A stretch of 64,000 nt of DNA from Clostridia bacterium (GCA_017469265.1 JAFUGS010000020.1:87808-151807); one strand, 5' to 3'. Positions 49,567 to 63,496 are shown, counted from the first letter of the stretch. Notes: a model not told the origin generated them from the letters alone. Numbers and translations are program-made.

Positions 49567-49599
49567 GTTCGGGTATCCTTTTTGGGAGGTGCTTTTGTC

Positions 49600-50169
49600 G
49601 TGCCCGTTTCCCTGGTTCTGGCCTCCTCCTCGCCCCGCCGCCAGGAGCTTCTGACCCTGGCCCGGATCCCTTACGAGGTGGACGCGCCGGAGGTGGATGA
49701 ATCCTGTGACCTGCCGATCGCGGAGGCCGTGGCCGAGCTGAGCCGGCGCAAGGCTTCCGCCGCGCTTTCGCTGCATCCGGGCCGCTTTGTTCTGGCCGCG
49801 GACACCCTCGTCGCCCTGGATGGGGAAAAGCTGGGCAAGCCCGCCTCCGAGGCGGAAGCCTGCGCCATGCTGCGCCGTCTGTCCGGCCGGACCCATACGG
49901 TCTGCACCGGGGTTACGGTGGTGGATCCCCAGGGCATCCTCCGCACGGAAGTGGATACCTCCCTTGTCACCTTCGACCCCATGCGGGAGGAGGAAATCCA
50001 GGCCTATGTCGCCACCGGGGAGCCCATGGACAAAGCCGGCGCCTACGCGGTGCAGGGCCAGACCGCCCTGTGGGTCCGCCGCCTGGAAGGCAGTCCTTCC
50101 GGCGTCATGGGGCTTCCGCTGGACCTGGTCCGGCGGCTGCTGGAACAAAGCGGTTATTCCTTTTTCTGA
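49600..50169 (+). CDS. maf: Maf family nucleotide pyrophosphatase
   Basis: GTG start after SD GGGAGG. LVLASSSPRRQELL, AADT, GKP, HTVCTG, DKAGAYAVQG. Confidence 0.93.
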   Translation: MPVSLVLASSSPRRQELLTLARIPYEVDAPEVDESCDLPIAEAVAELSRRKASAALSLHPGRFVLAADTLVALDGEKLGKPASEAEACAMLRRLSGRTHTVCTGVTVVDPQGILRTEVDTSLVTFDPMREEEIQAYVATGEPMDKAGAYAVQGQTALWVRRLEGSPSGVMGLPLDLVRRLLEQSGYSFF

Positions 50170-50202: not shown

Positions 50203-51234
50203 ATGCCTTTTGCGGCTCCTGATATTGGTATCGATCTGGGCACCTCCAACACCTGCGTCTACGTGCGCGGCCGGGGCATCGTGGTGAACGAGCCCACCCT
50301 GGTGGCGGTGGAGCGGGAAAGCCGGCACACCGTGAAAGCGGTGGGCGATGAGGCCCGCTTTCTCTACGGCCGCAGCCCCGATCAGCTCATGACCATCTCC
50401 CCCCTGCGCAACGGCCAGGTTTCGGATTTTGACATGACCGAGCTGCTGCTGAAGTATTTTATCCGGAAAGCCATCGGCATCAGCTACCTGAACAAGCCCC
50501 GGGCCATCGTTTCCGTCCCCTGCGGGCTGGATGACGTCAACCGGAAGGCCCTGACCTCTGCCGTCCGCTACGCCGGCGCCCGGCACGTTTTTCTGATCGA
50601 AAAGCCTTTTGCCGGCGCCATCGGCACCGGTCTGCCGGTCTATGATCCGGTGGGCAACATGGTGGTGGACATCGGCGCCGGGACAACGGACATCGCCGTC
50701 ATTTCCCTGGGCGGCCTGGTGGTTTCCCAGAGCGTTCCCATCGGTGGGGACCGGATGGATGAAGCGCTGATGAATTACCTCAAACGGGAATGCAACATCA
50801 TCGTCGGCCGGCAGACAGCGGAAAAGGTCAAGAAGGATCTGGCCACCGCCATGCCCCTGGAGGAACCCCGTTCCATCCTGGTTCGCGGGATCAACCAGCT
50901 GAACACCTCCGCCGGGACGATCTCCTTCACCTCGGACCAAGCCTACGCCGCTGTCCGGGAGCCCTGCGCCGGTATTATCAAGGCCATCCGCCAGGTACTG
51001 GAAAAAACGCCGCCGGAGCTCTGCGCCGACATCATGCGCGGCGGCATCCATCTGACCGGCTGCGGCAGCATGCTTTTCGCCCTGGATCAGTATATTTCTG
51101 AAAAGCTGGATATTCCCGTGCTGCTGGCCCGGGATCCCGGGGACTGCTGCATCCTGGGCATCGGATACCTGACCGAGAACATCCAGCTGGTTACGCCCCA
51201 GGATAAGCGTTCCGTTCCCGTCGCGCAGGGATAA
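50203..51234 (+). CDS. mreB: Rod shape-determining actin homologue MreB (divergent nucleotide pocket)
   Basis: IDLGTSNT, NEPTLVA, DIGAGTTDIAVISLGG, GGDRMDEA, AEKVK, TPPELCADI. Located directly upstream of mreC. Confidence 0.93.
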   Translation: MPFAAPDIGIDLGTSNTCVYVRGRGIVVNEPTLVAVERESRHTVKAVGDEARFLYGRSPDQLMTISPLRNGQVSDFDMTELLLKYFIRKAIGISYLNKPRAIVSVPCGLDDVNRKALTSAVRYAGARHVFLIEKPFAGAIGTGLPVYDPVGNMVVDIGAGTTDIAVISLGGLVVSQSVPIGGDRMDEALMNYLKRECNIIVGRQTAEKVKKDLATAMPLEEPRSILVRGINQLNTSAGTISFTSDQAYAAVREPCAGIIKAIRQVLEKTPPELCADIMRGGIHLTGCGSMLFALDQYISEKLDIPVLLARDPGDCCILGIGYLTENIQLVTPQDKRSVPVAQG

Positions 51235-51335: not shown

Positions 51336-52844
51336 ATGGCCCGTTTCAAGCTCCGCCCCCGGGAAAAAAGTAAGGATTCCCGACCCACCGTATCCGATGA
51401 TTTTATCTATGACGAGCCCCGGGCGGCGGATGCCTCCATCGCTTCAGACACGCCGGAGGAAGCGCTGAAAAAGCTCCGGGGGGGCAATCCCCCTCCGAAG
51501 GATCCCGCGTCCGCGGAACCGGAGACGGAGGAAACCCCTTCCGCGAAATCCCCAAAATCCTTTGACGCTTTCCGGAAAAAGACCCGGACCGCCTCTCCTG
51601 TCCAGCTGGATGACGATCTGCAGCCCATTCCCTCCCACCGCCGCGGGGGCGGGCATCCCCGGCTCCGCGTCTTCTTCCTGGTGCTGATCACCTTTGTGCT
51701 GCTCCTGTTTGTAGGGGCCTACGTCTACCACCGGATCATTCCCGCCGCCCCCTATCTGGGGGATCCGGAGATCATGGTGGGCGAGGCGGTTTCCCCCGTA
51801 CAGGAATTTTTCTCTTCCCTGACGGAAACCGTGGCGGGGCTCTTCCGCTCCTATAAGCTGCGCTCCAACATCGAGGCGGAATACAACGCCCTTCGGGCGG
51901 AAAATGAGCAGCTGGTATATAAAGCCATGCTGGCGGACGAACTGCAGCAGACGCTCTCCCAATATGAGGACCTCAGCGATGAGATTGCAGCCAACGCGAA
52001 CATGCAGCCCATTGTCTGCACGGTCATCGGAAAGTCCGATTCCAATTATTTTTCCACCTTTACCATCAACAAGGGCTCGGATGACGGGTTGGAGGATTAC
52101 ATGGCCGTCACCATCTCCGGCTCCCTCGTGGGCTATACGGAGAGCGTCCAGCCCTCCTCCGCCACCGTACGGACCATCATCGACTCCGAGGCTTCCATCG
52201 CCGCGCTGATTTCCTCCTCCCGGGATCAGGGCACCGTCCGCGGTACCCTGGGTATCGACGGCACCGCCATGTGCCGCATGTATTACCTGCCGGATGACAA
52301 TCTTCCCCGTCCCGGGGACACGGTGGTCACAAGCGGTGTCGGCATGTCCTTCCCCAAGGGGATCCCCATCGGCACCGTCCGGGAAAGCACCCGCGGGATG
52401 GACTCCAACAAGCAGTACATCGTGCTGGAGCCCCTGGCGGATTTCCAGCATCTGGAGTACGTTATCGTTCTTCGCTATAAGCCCGTGGCGGAGGCCATAC
52501 AGGGCCGGGAAAACGGCCGGACCAACGTGGAGCTGGTACCGCTGGAAAGCGCCCGGCCCTCGCCCGAGGTTCCGCAGATCGCCTCTTCCCTCTTCGAGTC
52601 TCAGACGACCCCGGATCCGAACGCGACGCCCACTCCCTCCCCGGAACCTACGGAGACGCCGGAACCCACGCCGGAGCCCACGCCGATTCCCACCCCCACG
52701 CCGGAAATCCACAACCTGGAATATCAGGTGGTAAATCCCAGGGGAGAACCGACGCCCACGCCTACGCCTTCCCCGGTGCCGACGCCCACGCCCTATATCA
52801 CCCCGGACCCGGATACCATGACCTTCGAGGAGGACGACGGATGA
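51336..52844 (+). CDS. mreC: Rod shape-determining protein MreC with long N- and C-terminal extensions
   Basis: TM helix, coiled coil (ALRAENEQL), FTINKGSDDG, LVG, DTVVTSGVGMSFPKGIPIGTV, LEPLADFQHLEYVIV. 502 aa. Confidence 0.92.
   Translation: MARFKLRPREKSKDSRPTVSDDFIYDEPRAADASIASDTPEEALKKLRGGNPPPKDPASAEPETEETPSAKSPKSFDAFRKKTRTASPVQLDDDLQPIPSHRRGGGHPRLRVFFLVLITFVLLLFVGAYVYHRIIPAAPYLGDPEIMVGEAVSPVQEFFSSLTETVAGLFRSYKLRSNIEAEYNALRAENEQLVYKAMLADELQQTLSQYEDLSDEIAANANMQPIVCTVIGKSDSNYFSTFTINKGSDDGLEDYMAVTISGSLVGYTESVQPSSATVRTIIDSEASIAALISSSRDQGTVRGTLGIDGTAMCRMYYLPDDNLPRPGDTVVTSGVGMSFPKGIPIGTVRESTRGMDSNKQYIVLEPLADFQHLEYVIVLRYKPVAEAIQGRENGRTNVELVPLESARPSPEVPQIASSLFESQTTPDPNATPTPSPEPTETPEPTPEPTPIPTPTPEIHNLEYQVVNPRGEPTPTPTPSPVPTPTPYITPDPDTMTFEEDDG
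52606..52815 (+). repeat. Pro/Thr-rich low-complexity repeat inside mreC
   Basis: Encodes TPDPNATPTPSPEPTETPEPTPEPTPIPTPTP and EPTPTPTPSPVPTPTPYITPDP. Confidence 0.9.
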
Positions 52845-53455
52845 AAAAGCTGCTTCGCCGTCTCTTTCAACCGGGTTCTTTCCGGAAATATTTTGTGTTT
52901 GTGCTGATGCTGCCCCTGGGTTTTCTCTGCCAGGTCTGCGTCATGCCCTATGTGCGCCCCTTCGGCGTCACCCCTAATCTGCTTTATGTGCATATCGCCA
53001 TCATCACCGTTGCCTACGGGCGGCTCCAGGCCTTCTGGGCCGGGCTGGTCTACGGCTTCCTGATGGAAATCCGCCTGCCCTCCGTGCCTTTTGTGCAGCT
53101 GGCCATCTATCCCCTTTCCAGCCTGTTCGTCTCCTTTGCCTTCGCGGACAAATCCCTCCGCCGGCTGCAGATGGACCGGGCCCTGAAGCGGAAATCCCGG
53201 GAGATGCCTCCCCTGCTGCGGACGGTGCTCTGCGCCATGGTAAATGTGCTGGTCTACGAAATCATCAATGTTGTTTACATCTATCTGGGGGGTACCAGCC
53301 TGAGCCCGCAGCATTTTATCCGGGCACTGCTGGATGTGATCGAAACCGGCGCGCTGGCCTTTTTCGTGGCCCTGGTGCTGCGTCCGGTCATCCTGGGCCG
53401 GCAGAAGCCGGAACCGGTGCTGAAAAATCAGCCCATCGTCTTTGGAAAAAAGTAA
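52841..53455 (+). CDS. mreD: Rod shape-determining protein MreD-like membrane protein
   Basis: Hydrophobic, with PNLLYVHIAIITVAYG...AGLVYGFLME. ATGA-coupled to mreC and followed by the PBP gene. Confidence 0.75.
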   Translation: MKKLLRRLFQPGSFRKYFVFVLMLPLGFLCQVCVMPYVRPFGVTPNLLYVHIAIITVAYGRLQAFWAGLVYGFLMEIRLPSVPFVQLAIYPLSSLFVSFAFADKSLRRLQMDRALKRKSREMPPLLRTVLCAMVNVLVYEIINVVYIYLGGTSLSPQHFIRALLDVIETGALAFFVALVLRPVILGRQKPEPVLKNQPIVFGKK

Positions 53456-53488
53456 CCCCCGCGGGAACCATTCTCTCAGGAAAGGAGC

Positions 53489-55993
53489 ATGCGCATGGAG
53501 AAGAAAAAGAAGATTCGTCCCGGGCTGGGCCGGTATATCGGCTTTCTCGTGGCGCTCTTTGCCATGTTTGTTTATCTGGTTTCCGGCCTGGTAAACCTGC
53601 AGCTGCGCCAGGAGGACTATTATCAGGAGAAGGCGGAATCCACCCGCACCAAGACCATCGCCCTCCGGGGCAAGCGCGGCAACATCGTCTCCTCCGACTC
53701 GGTGATCCTGGCGGAGGATGAGCTGATCTACAATGTTACCTTTTACAAGGACGCCTCCACCGTTTCCGCCGCGTCCTACAGGGCCTATACCGCCTCCATC
53801 ATCGATACCATCGGCATCGTGGAGAAAAACGGCGGCGAAATGGCCATCGATTTCGTCATCCGGCGGGACGAGGATACCGGGGACTGGGTCTTTAACTTTG
53901 GTTCCGGTGTGTCTGACTCGGTGCTGGCCACCCGGGAAAACCAGTGGCGCTCCAATAACTATCTGACCAACCTGAACCGTTACGAAACGCCGGCCCAGTG
54001 TATCGACCGGCTGAAAACCCGCTATCAGATCACCGACGACATCGATGAGGAAACCATGCTTAAAATCATGGCCATCTACTCGGAGATGCAGATGAACATC
54101 TTTAACTCCCAGCCCATCGTCATCGCCAAGGATGTCAAATACGAAACCGTCATCGAGATTGAAACCCGGTCCATGATGCTGCCGGGCATGGAGATCGAGA
54201 TCGGCACCAAGCGGGTTTATCCCCGGTCCACGCTGGCTTCCCAGATCATCGGGTACACCGGCGCCATTCCCTCCCGGGCCACCTGGCTGACCCTGCAGGC
54301 CAAGGGATATTCCTACAATGACACCATCGGCCGGGACGGCATTGAGTCCTCCATGGAGGACTGGCTTACGCAGAATTCCTCCCTTCGGAAGGGAACCAGG
54401 GTCGTGGAACGGGATCAGATGTCCAAGGTGGTCCGGGAGCTGAGCTACACGGAGCCTCAGGACGGCAACAATGTCAAGCTGACCCTGAACGCGGCCTACC
54501 AGGTGGTGGCCGAGCGGGCCATCGCCAGCAATGTGTCCACCACCCGGGATCTGCAGGAAAAATACCTGGCTTCCGATTCCTGGCTGGAGGCCAACAAGAC
54601 GGATATCCACAACCGGAACTGGGCCACCTATCCCCTGGATCTGGCGGAGCATGGCTGCCTCATTGTGCTGGACATGCAGTGCCGCGTGCTGGCCATGGCC
54701 AATTATCCCACCTATGACCTGAACGCCCTGGTGGCCGGCGGCAAGGACGCCATGGCCATCCTGGGGGACAGCCGGAATCTGCTGCTGAACTACGGCATCC
54801 ACGCCCGGGGAACCCCCGGCTCCATTTTCAAGATGGTTACCGGTACCGGCGCCCTCACCGAGGGGGAGCTGCTGCCCACGGAGCGGATCTCCGACGGCGG
54901 GTACTATACAAAGTACAACGCGGATAAATCCACCGCGCCGAAGTGCTGGATCAACCAGAATTACATCTACAAGCACGCCAACCAGACCATCGTGGACGGG
55001 CTGACCAACTCCTGCAATTACTTTTTCTACGAGCTGGGCAGCCGCCTGGGTGAGGAAAGGCTGTACCGGTACGCCTCTCTCTACGGGCTCACCTCCAAAA
55101 CCGGCATCGACCTTCCCGGCGAGGTACGCTCCGTGGTCGGCAGCCAGAACACGCTGTATGATCCTTCCAAGCCCATGAACGAAGCCAACCAGGATACCTC
55201 CCTGCCCATCATCGTCTTTAACTCCATCAAGACGCACCTGAAGAACTGCGGCGCTTCCCGGAACATTGAGTACGATGACGAGCGTCTCTCCGTCTGCGCC
55301 AAGCGCCTGATGGACATGGCCGTCAACTACAACGAATCCGAATGGCTGGACAACATGCGCACCATCCTGATGGAGGAGCTGAACATGACCAAGGAGATGG
55401 TCTACCTCCAGTCCGTCATCGGGGATACCTACAATTACATGAACGATATTAAATGGGGCGGCGGCCAGACCATTCTGACCGGCATCGGCCAGTCCGTCAC
55501 CGTGCTGACCCCCATCGCGGTCGCCCGGTATGTGTGTACGGTTGCCAATGGCGGCTATCTGTACAACGTGTCCCTGATCGACTCCATCTCCTCCCCGGAG
55601 GGCGAAATTCTCTCCCAGCGGGAGCCTACCCTGATCCATCGGCTGGATAAGGCGGATGAATATCTGCCCCTCATCCGGGAAGGGATGAAGGGCGTGGTTG
55701 ACGAGTCCGGTACCGCCGGTAAGTATTTCCGCCGCTGGCCCTACACGGATCAGATTGCCGCGAAAACCGGAACCGCGCAGGTAACGAAGATCGACCTGGA
55801 AAACAACTCCTGGTTCGTCTGTTTCGCCCCCTTCGAAAACCCGGAGATCGCCATCGCCTGTTTCATTCCCAACGGGTACTCCGGTTCGGAAGCGTCCAAG
55901 GCGCCCCGGGATTTCATCGAATGGTACATGGAGCAGAAGACCCTGCGCTCGGCGGAGGATATCCTCCCTGTACCCAACAGCCTGACCCCCTGA
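53489..55993 (+). CDS. mrdA: Class B penicillin-binding protein (PBP2/MrdA-type transpeptidase)
   Basis: N-terminal TM, RGKRGNI, GRDGIE, and transpeptidase motifs SIFK (SxxK), SCN (SxN), KTG. 834 aa. Confidence 0.9.
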   Translation: MRMEKKKKIRPGLGRYIGFLVALFAMFVYLVSGLVNLQLRQEDYYQEKAESTRTKTIALRGKRGNIVSSDSVILAEDELIYNVTFYKDASTVSAASYRAYTASIIDTIGIVEKNGGEMAIDFVIRRDEDTGDWVFNFGSGVSDSVLATRENQWRSNNYLTNLNRYETPAQCIDRLKTRYQITDDIDEETMLKIMAIYSEMQMNIFNSQPIVIAKDVKYETVIEIETRSMMLPGMEIEIGTKRVYPRSTLASQIIGYTGAIPSRATWLTLQAKGYSYNDTIGRDGIESSMEDWLTQNSSLRKGTRVVERDQMSKVVRELSYTEPQDGNNVKLTLNAAYQVVAERAIASNVSTTRDLQEKYLASDSWLEANKTDIHNRNWATYPLDLAEHGCLIVLDMQCRVLAMANYPTYDLNALVAGGKDAMAILGDSRNLLLNYGIHARGTPGSIFKMVTGTGALTEGELLPTERISDGGYYTKYNADKSTAPKCWINQNYIYKHANQTIVDGLTNSCNYFFYELGSRLGEERLYRYASLYGLTSKTGIDLPGEVRSVVGSQNTLYDPSKPMNEANQDTSLPIIVFNSIKTHLKNCGASRNIEYDDERLSVCAKRLMDMAVNYNESEWLDNMRTILMEELNMTKEMVYLQSVIGDTYNYMNDIKWGGGQTILTGIGQSVTVLTPIAVARYVCTVANGGYLYNVSLIDSISSPEGEILSQREPTLIHRLDKADEYLPLIREGMKGVVDESGTAGKYFRRWPYTDQIAAKTGTAQVTKIDLENNSWFVCFAPFENPEIAIACFIPNGYSGSEASKAPRDFIEWYMEQKTLRSAEDILPVPNSLTP

Positions 55994-56010
55994 GAAAGGA
56001 GGACGCGGTT

Positions 56011-56829
56011 TTGTCAAAAACATATCTGGTCGCCTCCGGCAAAGGGGGCGTCGGAAAATCGACCGTGACGGCCTGTCTGGCCGTCCTGCTGGCCCGGAAG
56101 GGGCGCCGCGTGGTTCTGATGGACGCGGACATCGGCCTTCGGTCCCAGGATCTGCTGCTGGGGCTGGAAAGCTCCGTGGTCTATGACCTGGTGGATGTGG
56201 CCCAGGGCCGCTGCCTGCTGAGTCAGGCGCTGCTTCCCTGCCCGGGAACGCCCAACCTGGAGCTGCTGCCCGCGGCGCAGTTTGCCCGCTGCAGGGATCT
56301 GGATCCGCGGAAGCTGAAAAAGATGCTCTCTCTCCTGCGGAAGGAACATGATTTCATTTTGATCGACTGTCCCGCCGGACTGGAGCGCGGCCTTCGGAAC
56401 GCTTTGAACGCCGGCATGCGCAATGAGACCCTGATTCTCGTCACGCCGGATGATCTCTGTATCCGCGGCGCGGAACGGGTTGCTGCCCTGATCGCGGAAA
56501 AAAACCTTCCCCGCCCGCAGCTGCTGGTTAACAGACTGGATCAGGATCGGGTTTTCACCCATGAGATGTACAGCGCCGCAACCATCTCCCAGGTGCTGGA
56601 TCTGCCGCTTCTGGGAGAGGTGCCGGAGGATTCCGCCGTCTATACGGCTCAGCTGCGACACCGGCTGACGATCGATTACGACTGCGAAGCCCGGAATGCC
56701 CTTCAGCGGATCGCCGCCCGACTGGATGGGGAGAATCCGCCTTTGCCGGATTACGGAAGGCGGAAAACCTCCTTTTTCCGGAAGCACTTTCCGCCGGCTC
56801 TGAAGGAGGTGCCTGATGAACGGAACTAA
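56011..56829 (+). CDS. minD: MinD-family ATPase (divergent)
   Basis: TTG start after SD AAAGGAGG. SGKGGVGKST, DADIGLR, VVYDLVDV, DCPAG, and a C-terminal amphipathic SFFRKHF. Confidence 0.85.
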   Translation: MSKTYLVASGKGGVGKSTVTACLAVLLARKGRRVVLMDADIGLRSQDLLLGLESSVVYDLVDVAQGRCLLSQALLPCPGTPNLELLPAAQFARCRDLDPRKLKKMLSLLRKEHDFILIDCPAGLERGLRNALNAGMRNETLILVTPDDLCIRGAERVAALIAEKNLPRPQLLVNRLDQDRVFTHEMYSAATISQVLDLPLLGEVPEDSAVYTAQLRHRLTIDYDCEARNALQRIAARLDGENPPLPDYGRRKTSFFRKHFPPALKEVPDERN

Positions 56830-58045
56830 TGTGGAGCGCCGGGCCTATCGGGCCCACACGGATCTGGTGCTGATCTTTCTGGTGGGCGTCATGTCCCTCA
56901 TGGGTATCGTTGCCGTCTGTGTCGCCACCTACACGCCGGATTCCAGCCCGGATATCTCCTTCCTGAATCACGTGGTGGAATCCTCCTACACCATGCGCCA
57001 GTGCCTTTTTGTGCTGGTGGCGCCGCTGGTGGTGGGTTTTATCATGGTGATTCCCTATGATCTGATCTTCCGCCGGGCGGAGCTGATCTACTGGGCCATG
57101 GTGGTGCTGCTGGCGGTGGTTACCGTCTTCAACCGGGCCCAGGGCGTGAAGGCCTGGCTGGACATTATCTGGGGATATACGATTCAGCCTTCGGAGTTCG
57201 CCAAGCTGTCCATGATTCTGATCCTGGCAAAGCAGCTGTCCCGGTCCAACCGGCCTATGGCCACCTTCCGCTCCTTTTCCCAGGTTATGCTCACAGTCAT
57301 GATTCCCGCGGTTATCATTCTTGCGGAGGGCGAAACCGGTTCCATGCTGGTGATCGTGTTTCTCACCGCCATCATGATGTACTTCTCCGGCTGCAGCCTG
57401 AAGATGCTGGGCATTCTGGCGGGCATCGCCGTGCTGGGCATCCTGTCCATCTACGGCCTGATGGTGGCCACCGGTTCCACGGACTACCGCCTGGCCCGGA
57501 TCTCCGGCTTCCTGAACCCGGAGCTCTATTCCTCCTCGGACTCCTATCAGATTCTCCAGTCCCAGATGGCCATCGGCTCCGGCGGCGTCACCGGCATCGG
57601 CATGTTTGTGGACGGTTCCATGAGCCAGCTGAACTACGTGCCCGCGGACTGGACGGACTTTATCTATGCCACCATCGGGGAAGCCTGGGGCTTTGCGGGC
57701 TGTATGACCGTTCTGGTGATGTATCTGCTGATCCTGCTGCGCATGCTGTACCTGGCCTATTACACCCGGGACAAATTCGGCCGGCTGATCATCTGCGGCG
57801 TGCTGGGGATGCTGCTGTTCCATGTGTTTGAGAACATCGCCATGACCCTGGGCCTGATGCCCATCACTGGCATTCCCCTGCCCTTCCTGTCCTACGGCGG
57901 CTCCAACATGGTTACCAACATGGGCGGCATCGGCCTGGTGCTGAACGTGACCCGGAACCGTTCCCTGTCCGACGCGGTCAGCACCCCCCAGACCTTTTAC
58001 AATCCCTATCGTTTTTCCACCCGATTCAAAACACGTCCCTGGTAA
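56816..58045 (+). CDS. rodA: SEDS glycosyltransferase RodA
   Basis: IQPSEFAK, AIGSGG, TDFIYATIGE, GLMPITGIPLPFLSYGGS. Confidence 0.92.
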   Translation: MNGTNVERRAYRAHTDLVLIFLVGVMSLMGIVAVCVATYTPDSSPDISFLNHVVESSYTMRQCLFVLVAPLVVGFIMVIPYDLIFRRAELIYWAMVVLLAVVTVFNRAQGVKAWLDIIWGYTIQPSEFAKLSMILILAKQLSRSNRPMATFRSFSQVMLTVMIPAVIILAEGETGSMLVIVFLTAIMMYFSGCSLKMLGILAGIAVLGILSIYGLMVATGSTDYRLARISGFLNPELYSSSDSYQILQSQMAIGSGGVTGIGMFVDGSMSQLNYVPADWTDFIYATIGEAWGFAGCMTVLVMYLLILLRMLYLAYYTRDKFGRLIICGVLGMLLFHVFENIAMTLGLMPITGIPLPFLSYGGSNMVTNMGGIGLVLNVTRNRSLSDAVSTPQTFYNPYRFSTRFKTRPW

Positions 58046-58054
58046 AAACGCACG

Positions 58055-58096
58055 AAAAAACAGGAACCGCGTCCTTCAGACCGGTTCCTGTTTTTG
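58055..58096. terminator. Bidirectional terminator between rodA and the vanZ-like gene
   Basis: AAAAACAGGAACCG-12 nt-CGGTTCCTGTTTTT. Confidence 0.85.
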
Positions 58097-58597
58097 ATGT
58101 TTTCTTATTTTCGATTGCCGCCGGAGCAGCGCCAGGACCCCCACCGTCAGCAGAATCCCCGTCAGCACGCCGGCGCTGTCGATGGTCACATCCCGCCATT
58201 GACCGCTCCGTCCGTCCACCAGCAGCTGATGGCTTTCGTCCAGCGCCGCGTACCCCGTAGCCGCGGCCCAGGCCGTCAGAGAACATATTCTCTTTCTGCC
58301 CAGCCAGCTCTCCAGGCACAGCCGCAGGCTGGCTCCCAGCAGGGCAAATTCCGTAAAATGCGCGCATTTCCGTACCACGTGCTGAATCCGGTCATAAAAG
58401 GCCTTTCGGGTCCTCGGCTCCATGCGCCGCCAGTCCGGACGGACCATGCTGGCCACCCGCTCAGCGACCCTGCCGCTGGTGATGTCCGATTTTTCCGCCG
58501 GCTCCGTGGAAAAAAGAAAGATCATGAGCATGACCCCCAGCACCAGCATGGTTGTCAGCGCTCTTCCCCAGGCGCTCTGCAAGCCCCTTCCCCGCAT
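58076..58597 (-). CDS. VanZ family membrane protein
   Basis: MIFLFS...S...SG, RKCAHFTEFALLG, YAALDESHQLLVDGRSGQWRDVTIDSAG. Confidence 0.9.
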   Translation of the reverse strand: MRGRGLQSAWGRALTTMLVLGVMLMIFLFSTEPAEKSDITSGRVAERVASMVRPDWRRMEPRTRKAFYDRIQHVVRKCAHFTEFALLGASLRLCLESWLGRKRICSLTAWAAATGYAALDESHQLLVDGRSGQWRDVTIDSAGVLTGILLTVGVLALLRRQSKIRKHQKQEPV

Positions 58598-59957: not shown

Positions 59958-61784
<1,827 letters not shown>

Positions 61785-61877
61785 TCATTCCTCCGCTTTC
61801 TATCGATGCATTCGATGTTTTTGTTTTATCCGGCCTTACGGCCTTTCCTCATGCCCTTTCGGGCCCTGTTGGCGCGT

Positions 61878-62465
61878 TTATTCGGGCACGACCTTCACCA
61901 TGGCGTGGCGAAGGATCTTCTCGCCCATTTTGTATCCCTTCTGCAGCACCTGGCACACGGTGCCGGGCTCACCCTCCTCCGGCGTCCCCTGCAGGATCGC
62001 GTTTTCCAGGTTCGGGTCAAATTTTTCTCCCAGCCGGTCAATGGCGCTGACGTCCAGTTTCCGATAGACCTCGTTCATCTGCTTCAGCACCAGCTCCACG
62101 CCGTTCTTCAGCGCCTCGTCCGTGCTGCCGGCCGCCGCGTCCGCCGCCCGCTCCAGATTGTCCAAGACGGGCAGCATGGCCGCCGCCACGTCCCGCTTGC
62201 CTTCGGCGAAGCTGTCCGCCCGGACGCTCTCGTTCCGGCGGCGGAAATTCTCAAAATCCGCCTGGACCCGCTGCGCCATGGCCAGGTACTCCGCGGCCTT
62301 CGCCTGCGCGTCCGCCAGTTCCTTGTTCTCCGGCTCCTTCGGCGGCTCCTGCGCCGCTTCCTCGCTCGCCTGTTCCGGCTCCGTCTCCGGCACCACGGTC
62401 TCCTGTTCCGTCTCCGGGGCTTTTTCCTCTGGGTTCATGCTGTTCTTCCTCTTCTTTCGGCTCAT
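61878..62465 (-). CDS. grpE: Nucleotide exchange factor GrpE
   Basis: ADFENFRRR, LPVLDNLERA, FDPNLENA, QKGYKMGEKILRHAMVKV. Confidence 0.96.
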   Translation of the reverse strand: MSRKKRKNSMNPEEKAPETEQETVVPETEPEQASEEAAQEPPKEPENKELADAQAKAAEYLAMAQRVQADFENFRRRNESVRADSFAEGKRDVAAAMLPVLDNLERAADAAAGSTDEALKNGVELVLKQMNEVYRKLDVSAIDRLGEKFDPNLENAILQGTPEEGEPGTVCQVLQKGYKMGEKILRHAMVKVVPE

Positions 62466-63496
62466 TGTTTTTCATCCCCTCCGCTGAACAGATCCGTCAG
62501 CTGGTGGCCCATCACGTTCAGGATGGACAGCACCCGGGAATACTGCATCCGCGTGGGACCGATCACGCCGATGGTTCCCTGCTGCCCGTTCCGGGTGGAA
62601 TAGGTCGCCGTCACGATGGAGCAGTCCACCATTTCCGGCACCCCCGTTTCCGGCCCGATGCGGACGGTAAAGGCCATCTCCCCGTTCCCGTCAATGATGC
62701 TGGCCAGCCGGTCCCTTGTCTCCATCAGGCTCAGGAAACTGCGGGCCTTTTCCACGTCGCTGTATTCCGGATAGCTCAGCATATTGCTGGTCCCTCCGAT
62801 GGCCACATGCGGCCTGCGCGGGGATTCCCGCCGCTCGTTCAGGAATCCATAAAGATTCCGGAGCAGCTCCTCGTTTTCCCGCATCCGGTCGATCATCTCC
62901 GGCAGGATCCCGCAGGCTTCCTCCAGCGTGTGCCCCCGCAGGGCGTCCGTGATGGCCCGGGAAATGGCGTACAGCGTGTCACTGTCCACCTCGGCGGAAA
63001 GGTGAATCGTGCTGTCCCGCACGATCCCCGCGTCCGTCACCACCACCACCAGCGCCGCGTCCCGCGACACCGGCACCAGCTGCACCGTCTGAATCCGGGG
63101 CATCTTCCCCTTCGGCGGCAGCACCACGGCGGTGTATTTGGTCAGGGCGGAAATCACGCTGGCCGCGTGGTCAATCACGTCCTCCATCTGGTGCACCCGG
63201 CCGGAAAAATGCCGCTCCACGCTTTCCAGGCTGTCGTCCCGAATGCGGCCGGCCTTCATCAGGCTGTCCACATACAGGCGGTATGCCTTGGCGCTCGGCA
63301 CCCGTCCGGCGGAAACATGAGGCTGATCCAGATACCCCAGCTCCTCCAGGTCGCTCATCTCGTTCCGGATGGTGGCGGAGGAAAGGCCCATGTCATACTT
63401 CCGGCTGATGGTTCTGGATCCCACCGGCACGCCGGTCAGGATGTAATCATCGATGATGGCCTGCAGGATCTTCAGCTTCCGCTCGTCCATCTCCAT
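62462..63496 (-). CDS. hrcA: Heat-inducible transcription repressor HrcA
   Basis: RKLKILQAIIDDYI...PVGSRTI...SSATIRNEMSDLEELGYL...SAGRVPS, GVIGPTRMQY. Confidence 0.97.
   Translation of the reverse strand: MEMDERKLKILQAIIDDYILTGVPVGSRTISRKYDMGLSSATIRNEMSDLEELGYLDQPHVSAGRVPSAKAYRLYVDSLMKAGRIRDDSLESVERHFSGRVHQMEDVIDHAASVISALTKYTAVVLPPKGKMPRIQTVQLVPVSRDAALVVVVTDAGIVRDSTIHLSAEVDSDTLYAISRAITDALRGHTLEEACGILPEMIDRMRENEELLRNLYGFLNERRESPRRPHVAIGGTSNMLSYPEYSDVEKARSFLSLMETRDRLASIIDGNGEMAFTVRIGPETGVPEMVDCSIVTATYSTRNGQQGTIGVIGPTRMQYSRVLSILNVMGHQLTDLFSGGDEKQ

Follow-up and report, generated by a model that had tools for sequence, protein, structure and literature searches.

The function of MinD is defined in textbooks by its partners, either MinC and MinE or, alternatively, MinC, MinJ and DivIVA. 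The residues that serve these contacts have been described: K11 contacts D152 in the MinD monomer, N45 is implicated in MinE-stimulated hydrolysis, a D152A variant shows no stimulation by MinE, and the helix-7 residues S148, D154 and I159 touch both the RSGQ motif of MinC and the MinE helix (PMC6803595). MinD-family ATPases that lack MinC and MinE and place cargo other than a division inhibitor are described for Haloferax (MinD4 and MinD2) in two preprints (bioRxiv 10.1101/2020.04.03.021790, 10.1101/2024.08.01.606218). Here we describe a minD gene, at positions 56011-56829 of a 64,000-nucleotide stretch (referred to as the window) of the metagenome-assembled genome (MAG) of a Clostridia bacterium (GCA_017469265.1, JAFUGS010000020.1:87808-151807), for which neither MinC nor MinE was found. 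We consider it fairly probable that this orphan MinD was retained under selection after the loss of MinC and MinE, and that its helix-7 groove now docks a different client.

Judged by its sequence and its predicted structure, the product of 56011-56829 is a true MinD membrane ATPase. It narrowly passed the cut-off of the NCBIfam MinD equivalog model TIGR01968 (223.7 versus 212.9 bits), whereas that of the archaeal-type MinD model TIGR01969 was not reached (135.6 versus 201.75 bits), and the score against the enterobacterial MinD model NF008079 was far under that model's own cut-off. The top sequence matches in the PDB were the MinDs of Aquifex, Pseudomonas and E. coli (E values from 4e-42 to 2e-37). 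An AlphaFold2 model obtained from 67 sequences had a predicted local distance difference test (pLDDT) value of 92.3 and a predicted template modelling score (pTM) of 0.91. Its best Foldseek matches were 6RIQ (chain C), 3Q9L (chain A), 3R9J and 4V02 (E values from 1e-22 to 1e-24), and template modelling (TM) scores against solved MinD structures ranged from 0.82 to 0.94, the maximum of 0.94 being normalised to the target. In this model, helix 7 comprises residues 148-163, and a C-terminal helix (residues 255-259) is placed within the SFFRKHF motif. The sequence SGKGGVGKS occupies residues 9-17, with K11 and K16 invariant in 60 out of 60 family sequences; the residues for hydrolysis (K16, D38, D40 and D120) are likewise invariant, and the Walker B/switch II segment IDCPAG (D120-x-P-A-G) is retained at a level of at least 90% across the family. 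The C-terminal amphipathic pattern is conserved in the genus, and basic and aromatic C-termini persist throughout the family.

Searches of the genome itself with the Pfam MinC_C and MinE profiles detected no MinC and no MinE, and order-specific MinC and MinE hidden Markov models (HMMs), built from sister families, had no match below E = 0.3 with every filter disabled. The lone weak Pfam match to MinC (11.7 bits, on contig C17) was a YceD-family protein, and the N-terminal extension of MreC, considered as a cryptic MinE, had no MinE similarity detectable with the order-specific HMMs, again with filters off. Neither partner was found in the 36 species examined in the genus (0/36 each, one- and two-contig genomes included), nor did any protein score above the cut-off in 121 family genomes, each at least 85% complete and together covering 60 genera (0/121 for MinC and 0/121 for MinE). 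A MinD orthologue was found in 29 of the 36 genus genomes and in 100 of the 121 family genomes (51 of the 60 genera). In public databases, these relatives are entered as rumen and gut MAGs under the labels Christensenella, Clostridia or Clostridiales, and the protein of close relatives is annotated as 'septum site-determining protein MinD', a name that probably mis-states its role.

The chromosomal context was compared within the order. In seven sister families the cluster reads maf-mreB-mreC-(mreD)-pbp2-minC-minD-minE-rodA, with minC situated between pbp2 and minD, while all of the 60 family loci analysed read pbp2-minD-rodA with nothing intervening; the gene is a positional orthologue of MinD. 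Eight other families of the same order (L119, L121-L127) have MinD and MinE, often arranged as maf-mreB-minD-minE, with MinC absent genome-wide. The Pfam MinE profile overlooked the MinE of one of them (L127), which was recovered by the order-specific HMM (E = 4e-14). Across the order, the Min system has been dismantled by degrees, from MinCDE through MinDE and MinD alone to none. In a tree of the 60 orphan MinDs and canonical MinDs, with FlhG-like and ParA-like proteins as outgroups, the orphan MinDs formed a single clade with a Shimodaira-Hasegawa-like approximate likelihood ratio (SH-aLRT) support of 100 and a stem of 0.77 substitutions per site.

Residues were numbered by a residue-by-residue alignment to E. 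coli MinD (3Q9L). A previous first-pass annotation of the window had placed K11, K16, D38, D40 and R44 in the E. coli register, had read switch I as DIGLRSQD with N45 replaced by Ser (TCC at 56143), and had noted S148L, D152G and D154E in a helix reading PDDLCIRGAER; translation, codon reading and alignment confirmed all of these. In full, switch I reads DADIGLRSQD, and the helix-7 codons at issue are CTC at 56455 (S148 in E. coli), GGC at 56467 (D152 in E. coli, residue 153 of the protein itself) and GAA at 56473 (D154 in E. coli). Compared with PEVSSVRDSDR in E. coli, this corresponds to E146D, V147D, S148L, D152G and D154E. Residue 159 is Leu here, as is also seen in canonical MinDs.

As a comparison set, we aligned the sequences of 52 canonical MinDs whose genes adjoin minC and/or minE, taken from families of the same order, other Bacillota including the MinE-less Bacillales, Fusobacteriota, Cyanobacteria/Vampirovibrionales, Chloroflexota and E. 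coli. N45, E146, D152 and D154 were present in 52 out of 52, with either Ser or Ala at position 148, and the switch I Asn is also retained in FlhG/FleN-type outgroups. These positions do not vary freely among ordinary clostridial MinDs, a possibility that the first-pass annotation had allowed for, and Bacillales MinDs that have MinC and lack MinE keep N45 and D152, in line with its statement about B. subtilis. In the orphan family, residue 45 is Ser, Asp, Cys, Gly or Ala (Asn in just 2 of 60 sequences), position 148 is always Val, Leu, Ile or Ala, and V147 is replaced by Asp in nearly all members. Residues 45, 146, 148, 154 and 222 are altered family-wide, and together with the failure to find MinC or MinE in genome, genus or family this bears out the proposal of the first-pass annotation that the protein is not a standard partner of a division inhibitor. 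By contrast, most of the family and roughly half of the genus still have Asp at position 152: Gly152 occurs in 3 of 60 sequences, namely the source species and two close relatives. Elsewhere in the genus Ser or Asn is seen, and a few further genera have Asn or Ala.

The pattern of change was quantified over the 93 alignment columns with a conservation of at least 90% among canonical MinDs, scored across the 60 family sequences. Thirty-nine of them are kept at a level of at least 90% in the family, including S9-K16, D38, D40, G42-R44, D47, D120-P-A-G124, R151 and R155. Fourteen are relaxed, including N45, L46, T91 and G158. In a further eight, the canonical residue has given way to a new one that became fixed, namely E146D (100%), N241R (98%), D154E (95%), T17S (93%), N222L (88%), G224H (85%), T8A (80%) and D93R (80%). 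Because these replacements are fixed in a family whose members are only about 49% identical, they point to new constraint on the former docking surface rather than to decay. On the evidence of the alignment, the substitutions at positions 45, 146, 148 and 154 are not ordinary or chance variation.

Ratios of non-synonymous to synonymous substitution rates (dN/dS) of minD lay between 0.06 and 0.36 in 17 pairs, with a median near 0.13 and values far below 1 in every pair; as far as sequence comparison can tell, MinD is shown to be under purifying selection. The minD values were often 1.5 to 4 times those of rodA and pbp2 at the same loci. Of the 100 matching genomes, by far the most have an open frame of about 270 codons; a single in-frame stop is seen in eight matches, mostly at their 3' end. 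Since dN/dS is well below 1 and the core columns are kept, the family MinD can be regarded as functional by sequence criteria.

We propose that the ancestor of this large, uncultured Clostridia family lost minC and minE by deletion from the pbp2-minC-minD-minE-rodA cluster and kept minD. Because the core and the membrane motif are conserved, MinD would still form an ATP-dependent dimer on the membrane. Its ATP turnover would probably be slow or otherwise triggered, since MinE is absent and residue 45 is unconstrained. The former MinC/MinE groove carries new fixed residues (P-D-D-hydrophobic...R-x-A-E, L222, H224 and R241) and, because it has been re-specified in this manner, would most likely dock a different client; MinD probably works with a partner other than MinC or MinE.

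The leading candidate for this client, to be taken as a lead and not as a result, would be a cytoplasmic peptide from one of the wall-elongation proteins that the operon encodes and, in the genus, the N-terminal extension of MreC. This extension comprises about 110 amino acids here (window positions 51336-51680), the transmembrane helix starting near residue 112, and 105-200 amino acids in the genus and neighbouring genera (L166-L184, L199-L203). It is variable except for short motifs, namely DDFIYD, a SDTPEEAxRKLR pattern (here SDTPEEALKKLR) and a third, NLQPV-like one. The MreCs of eight family genomes that lack minD (L157-L164) are about 365-378 amino acids long and have short N-termini. 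In the 39 genomes in which both minD and mreC were read, R93 in MinD (mostly accompanied by F91 and Q46) coincided with a long MreC extension in 26 of 27, the lone exception being perhaps a truncated reading, and MinDs without R93 coincided with a short MreC N-terminus in 12 of 12. On the MinD tree, the extension trait changes twice, with one gain and one loss, the loss falling within a nested clade from which F91 and R93 have disappeared as well. Neither the presence nor the extension of MreC was upheld as a family-wide correlate of MinD, as MreC occurs in all 60 genera and the long extension is limited to one subclade; for this latter reason the extension cannot explain why MinD is retained family-wide. 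We regard as rather unlikely the more specific reading that MinD was converted into a membrane ATPase that docks rod-wall peptides (in the genus, DDFIYD and SDTPEEAxRKL of MreC) and places or gates the RodA-PBP2 elongasome, being stoichiometrically coupled with RodA.

Several observations weigh against the proposal of a retained, re-specified MinD or against its elongasome extension. Firstly, the evolutionary rate of the orphan clade is about threefold that of canonical MinD (root-to-tip distances of 2.43 and 0.75, respectively), mean identity is 0.49 within the orphan family versus 0.62 among canonical MinDs of several phyla, and the focal lineage has the highest dN/dS (0.26-0.36), with rodA and pbp2 exceeded by a factor of two to eight. 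Secondly, minD was not found in 9 of the 60 family genera. In the eight minD-less genomes whose locus was read (L157-L164), which represent six genera, rodA comes directly after pbp2. Since the elongasome genes mreB, mreC, pbp2 and rodA persist in minD-less genera, MinD is dispensable for rod growth in some relatives. A frame in the pbp2-rodA gap of one of these genomes (L161), considered as a minD remnant, was rejected because it resembles a GNAT-type acetyltransferase, as judged by eye and with no profile search. Thirdly, an independent second orphan MinD located after pbp2 (L065:4001-4786, in a Monoglobaceae MAG of unstated completeness with no Pfam MinC or MinE match) keeps all of the canonical docking residues N45, S148, D152, D154 and N222, so that partner loss alone does not force the substitutions. 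Finally, no client partner of MinD was identified in our analysis. Its position in the operon is no evidence for an elongasome role because it was inherited from the ancestral pbp2-minC-minD-minE-rodA order, and the MinD-MreC co-distribution amounts to at most two evolutionary events with an uncertain long-branch placement.

An alternative that we consider possible, albeit unlikely, is that MinD continues to regulate the division site, with DivIVA keeping it at poles or septa, and that its helix-7 surface recruits a non-homologous FtsZ inhibitor or organiser instead of MinC. This would maintain the ancestral role of the minD gene slot, and the newly fixed surface residues are consistent with a replaced effector; however, no candidate effector turned up. 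The eight sister families with MinD and MinE and no MinC indicate that MinC-independent use of MinD is common in the order, but it is not evident how a gradient would form in this family with neither MinE nor a known adaptor. DivIVA itself is present in the genome and in 119 of the 121 family genomes; as it is equally present in MinD-less genera, it is uninformative as a discriminator.

The 3' end of minD bears on a further alternative. As the first-pass annotation had described, SFFRKHF (residues 254-260) is followed by 12 extra amino acids, PPALKEVPDERN, and the minD stop overlaps the rodA start, the overlap being 14 nucleotides (rodA ATG at 56816, minD stop at 56827-56829). The tail did not hold as a protein feature, since it encodes the Shine-Dalgarno sequence and the start of rodA. 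The K/R-E-V conserved in these tails is always encoded as xxG-GAG-GTx, that is, the GGAGGT Shine-Dalgarno sequence of rodA, whose start codon (ATG or TTG) lies 5-8 nucleotides after it within the last minD codons. About 29 of 33 genus loci have GGAGGT and the rodA start within the 3' end of minD; in loci without overlap (L015, L087, L096) the tails are unrelated or missing and the motif is absent, and the tail was accordingly discarded as a new protein motif. On this codon evidence, it is a by-product of translational coupling to rodA that arose when minE was removed, and the arrangement shows minD as predicted to be translated in tandem with rodA.

This embedding of the rodA signals could also be expected of a slowly decaying relic, without a specific partner, that persists inside an essential operon as carrier of the rodA ribosome-binding site. 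Yet the last 30 nucleotides of minD alone would suffice for rodA, and the frame of about 270 codons has remained open in most of the 100 genomes. Such a relic would also be in keeping with the threefold rate, the relaxation of N45 and 13 other formerly invariant columns, the dN/dS of the focal lineage above that of its neighbours and the clean loss in 9 of 60 genera. We nevertheless consider it improbable, given dN/dS values far below 1 in all pairs (median near 0.13), a nucleotide-binding core and membrane motif that are invariant despite 30-70% identity of the family MinDs to the focal protein, and eight replaced positions fixed to new residues.

The first-pass annotation had suggested that the protein may be a locked membrane-bound dimer that positions the elongasome, a mechanism in which D152G together with N45S would hold it as a permanent ATP dimer, and it proposed the conservation of S45 and G153 (position 152 in E. 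coli) in orthologues as a check. The source species does combine G152 with S45, and the reported K11-D152 contact, the unstimulated D152A variant and the role of N45 (PMC6803595) speak for such a lock. Position 45 varies freely in the family and is Asn in just 2 of 60 sequences, and Gly at position 152 is lineage-specific. A residue found in 3 of 60 sequences cannot define a family mechanism when most family members, and about half of those in the genus, have D152, and D152G was rejected as the defining change. Moreover, the catalytic residues K16, D38, D40 and D120 are intact, and insensitivity to MinE has no consequence when MinE is absent; we judge the locked dimer very improbable. Least credible of all is that MinC and/or MinE exist and were missed, in unassembled regions of this 103-contig MAG (completeness 91.75%) or by divergence beyond detection (MinD itself evolves fast here, and Pfam overlooked one real divergent sister-family MinE that the order-specific HMM found), as neither was matched in 36 genus or 121 family genomes, several of them in one to three contigs, nor by order-specific HMMs with filters off below E = 0.3 in the genome itself, and the ancestral site has no room for them, with 17 nucleotides between pbp2 and minD and an overlap between minD and rodA.

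The coordinates of minD, its sequence elements and the neighbouring genes of the operon are compiled in the table below.

Table. Features of the minD locus, in window positions.
Feature	Position	Strand	Remarks
maf	49582-50169	+	5' part of the minD operon
mreB	50203-51234	+	5' part of the minD operon
mreC	51336-52844	+	502 amino acids; cytoplasmic N-terminal extension of about 110 amino acids
MreC motif DDFIYD	51396-51413	+	conserved in genus and neighbouring genera
MreC motif SDTPEEALKKLR (SDTPEEAxRKLR pattern)	51444-51479	+	conserved in genus and neighbouring genera
mreD	52841-53455	+	5' part of the minD operon
pbp2 (class B penicillin-binding protein, PBP)	53489-55993	+	834 amino acids; directly 5' of minD; stop TGA 55991-55993
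Shine-Dalgarno sequence of minD (AAAGGAGGA)	55995-56003	+	8 nucleotides from GGAGG to the TTG start
minD coding sequence	56011-56829	+	272 amino acids; TTG start, TAA stop (56827-56829); open-frame translation without stops
Deviant Walker A G10-K11-G-G-V-G-K16-S17	56038-56061	+	signature K11 and catalytic K16 both retained
Switch I D38-A-D40-I-G-L-R44-S45-Q46-D47	56122-56151	+	D38, D40 and R44 retained; N45 and L46 substituted
Helix 7 start PDDLCIRGAER	56446-56478	+	residues 146-156 of the protein, 145-155 in E. coli; MinC/MinE docking helix
C-terminal amphipathic membrane-targeting motif SFFRKHF	56770-56790	+	residues 254-260; aligns with E. coli GFLKRLF
12-codon tail PPALKEVPDERN and stop	56791-56829	+	holds the rodA Shine-Dalgarno sequence AAGGAGG (56803-56809) and the rodA ATG (56816)
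rodA	56816-58045	+	409 amino acids; predicted translational coupling to minD

Downstream of rodA, a VanZ-like gene (58076-58597, minus strand) is convergent to it, so that rodA marks the end of the operon; in many Clostridia, this spot convergent to rodA is occupied by mgsA. Beyond the VanZ-like gene, hrcA-dnaK-dnaJ are encoded on the minus strand. The PBP2 encoded upstream of minD is long: its dimerisation-domain match extends over 258 residues for a profile of 180 positions, and its transpeptidase match is in two pieces, which suggests insertions. A plus-strand open reading frame of 782 amino acids (60255-62603) that matches Pfam PF10712 'NAD-GH' (E = 3e-148) was rejected as a gene; it is antisense to dnaK (59958-61781, minus strand; HSP70, 838 bits) and represents a shadow frame of high-GC DNA. 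Likewise, an antisense frame of 1076 amino acids (52793-56023, minus strand) spans mreD and pbp2, and there are more long antisense frames nearby; those around mreD-pbp2 are typical high-GC shadow frames.

No bacterial MinD orthologue with neither MinC nor MinE and with a remodelled docking surface is described in the literature that we searched. With at least 51 genera in which a selected and, from its sequence, catalytically intact MinD occurs and neither partner was found, the family represents a natural experiment on MinD alone, and it is informative on how an ATPase of the ParA/MinD type switches clients. The series present in the order, from MinCDE to MinDE, MinD and none, is useful for studying how a Min system is dismantled. 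If the elongasome were indeed the client, a Min-type positioning ATPase would be linked to lateral wall synthesis.

With the canonical bacterial MinDs (E. coli 3Q9L/3R9I, Aquifex 4V02 and Pseudomonas 6RIQ), the orphan protein shares the fold, the Walker A lysines K11 and K16, D38 and D40, D120-x-P-A-G, R151 and R155, the C-terminal amphipathic helix and the chromosomal slot after pbp2 and before rodA. It differs from them in being an orphan for which no MinC or MinE was found, in the loss of N45 and L46, in the changes E146D, V147D, S148 to a hydrophobic residue or Ala, D154E, N222L, G224H and N241R, and in its roughly threefold faster evolution. The MinCD system of the B. subtilis type, with MinJ and DivIVA, likewise belongs to Bacillota without MinE, with DivIVA present and minD located after the mre genes. 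However, its MinDs keep MinC as well as N45, S/A148, D152 and D154, whereas for the orphan MinD no MinC was found and these residues are substituted. The MinDE-only sister families resemble the orphan family in that MinC is absent and a fast-evolving MinD is kept, and in the tree they are placed beside the orphan clade, though the branch is unresolved. Unlike the orphan, they have kept MinE, and their MinDs retain N45, S148 (Thr in L122), D152 and mostly D154 (6 of 8), with changes of their own in R44N, E146H (5 of 8) and R155K.

Outside these groups, the archaeal MinD homologues form a separate sister clade, whereas the orphan MinD descends from bacterial MinCDE. FlhG/FleN (PDB 4RZ3, 5J1J) share the MinD-like fold, the C-terminal amphipathic helix and a switch of partner relative to MinD, but they are only about 28% identical to the orphan protein, give weaker structural matches and, in the case of FlhG, retain the switch I Asn, and no flagellar context is present at the orphan locus. 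The nearest known parallels are the archaeal MinDs without MinC and MinE, together with the FlhG-type paralogues.

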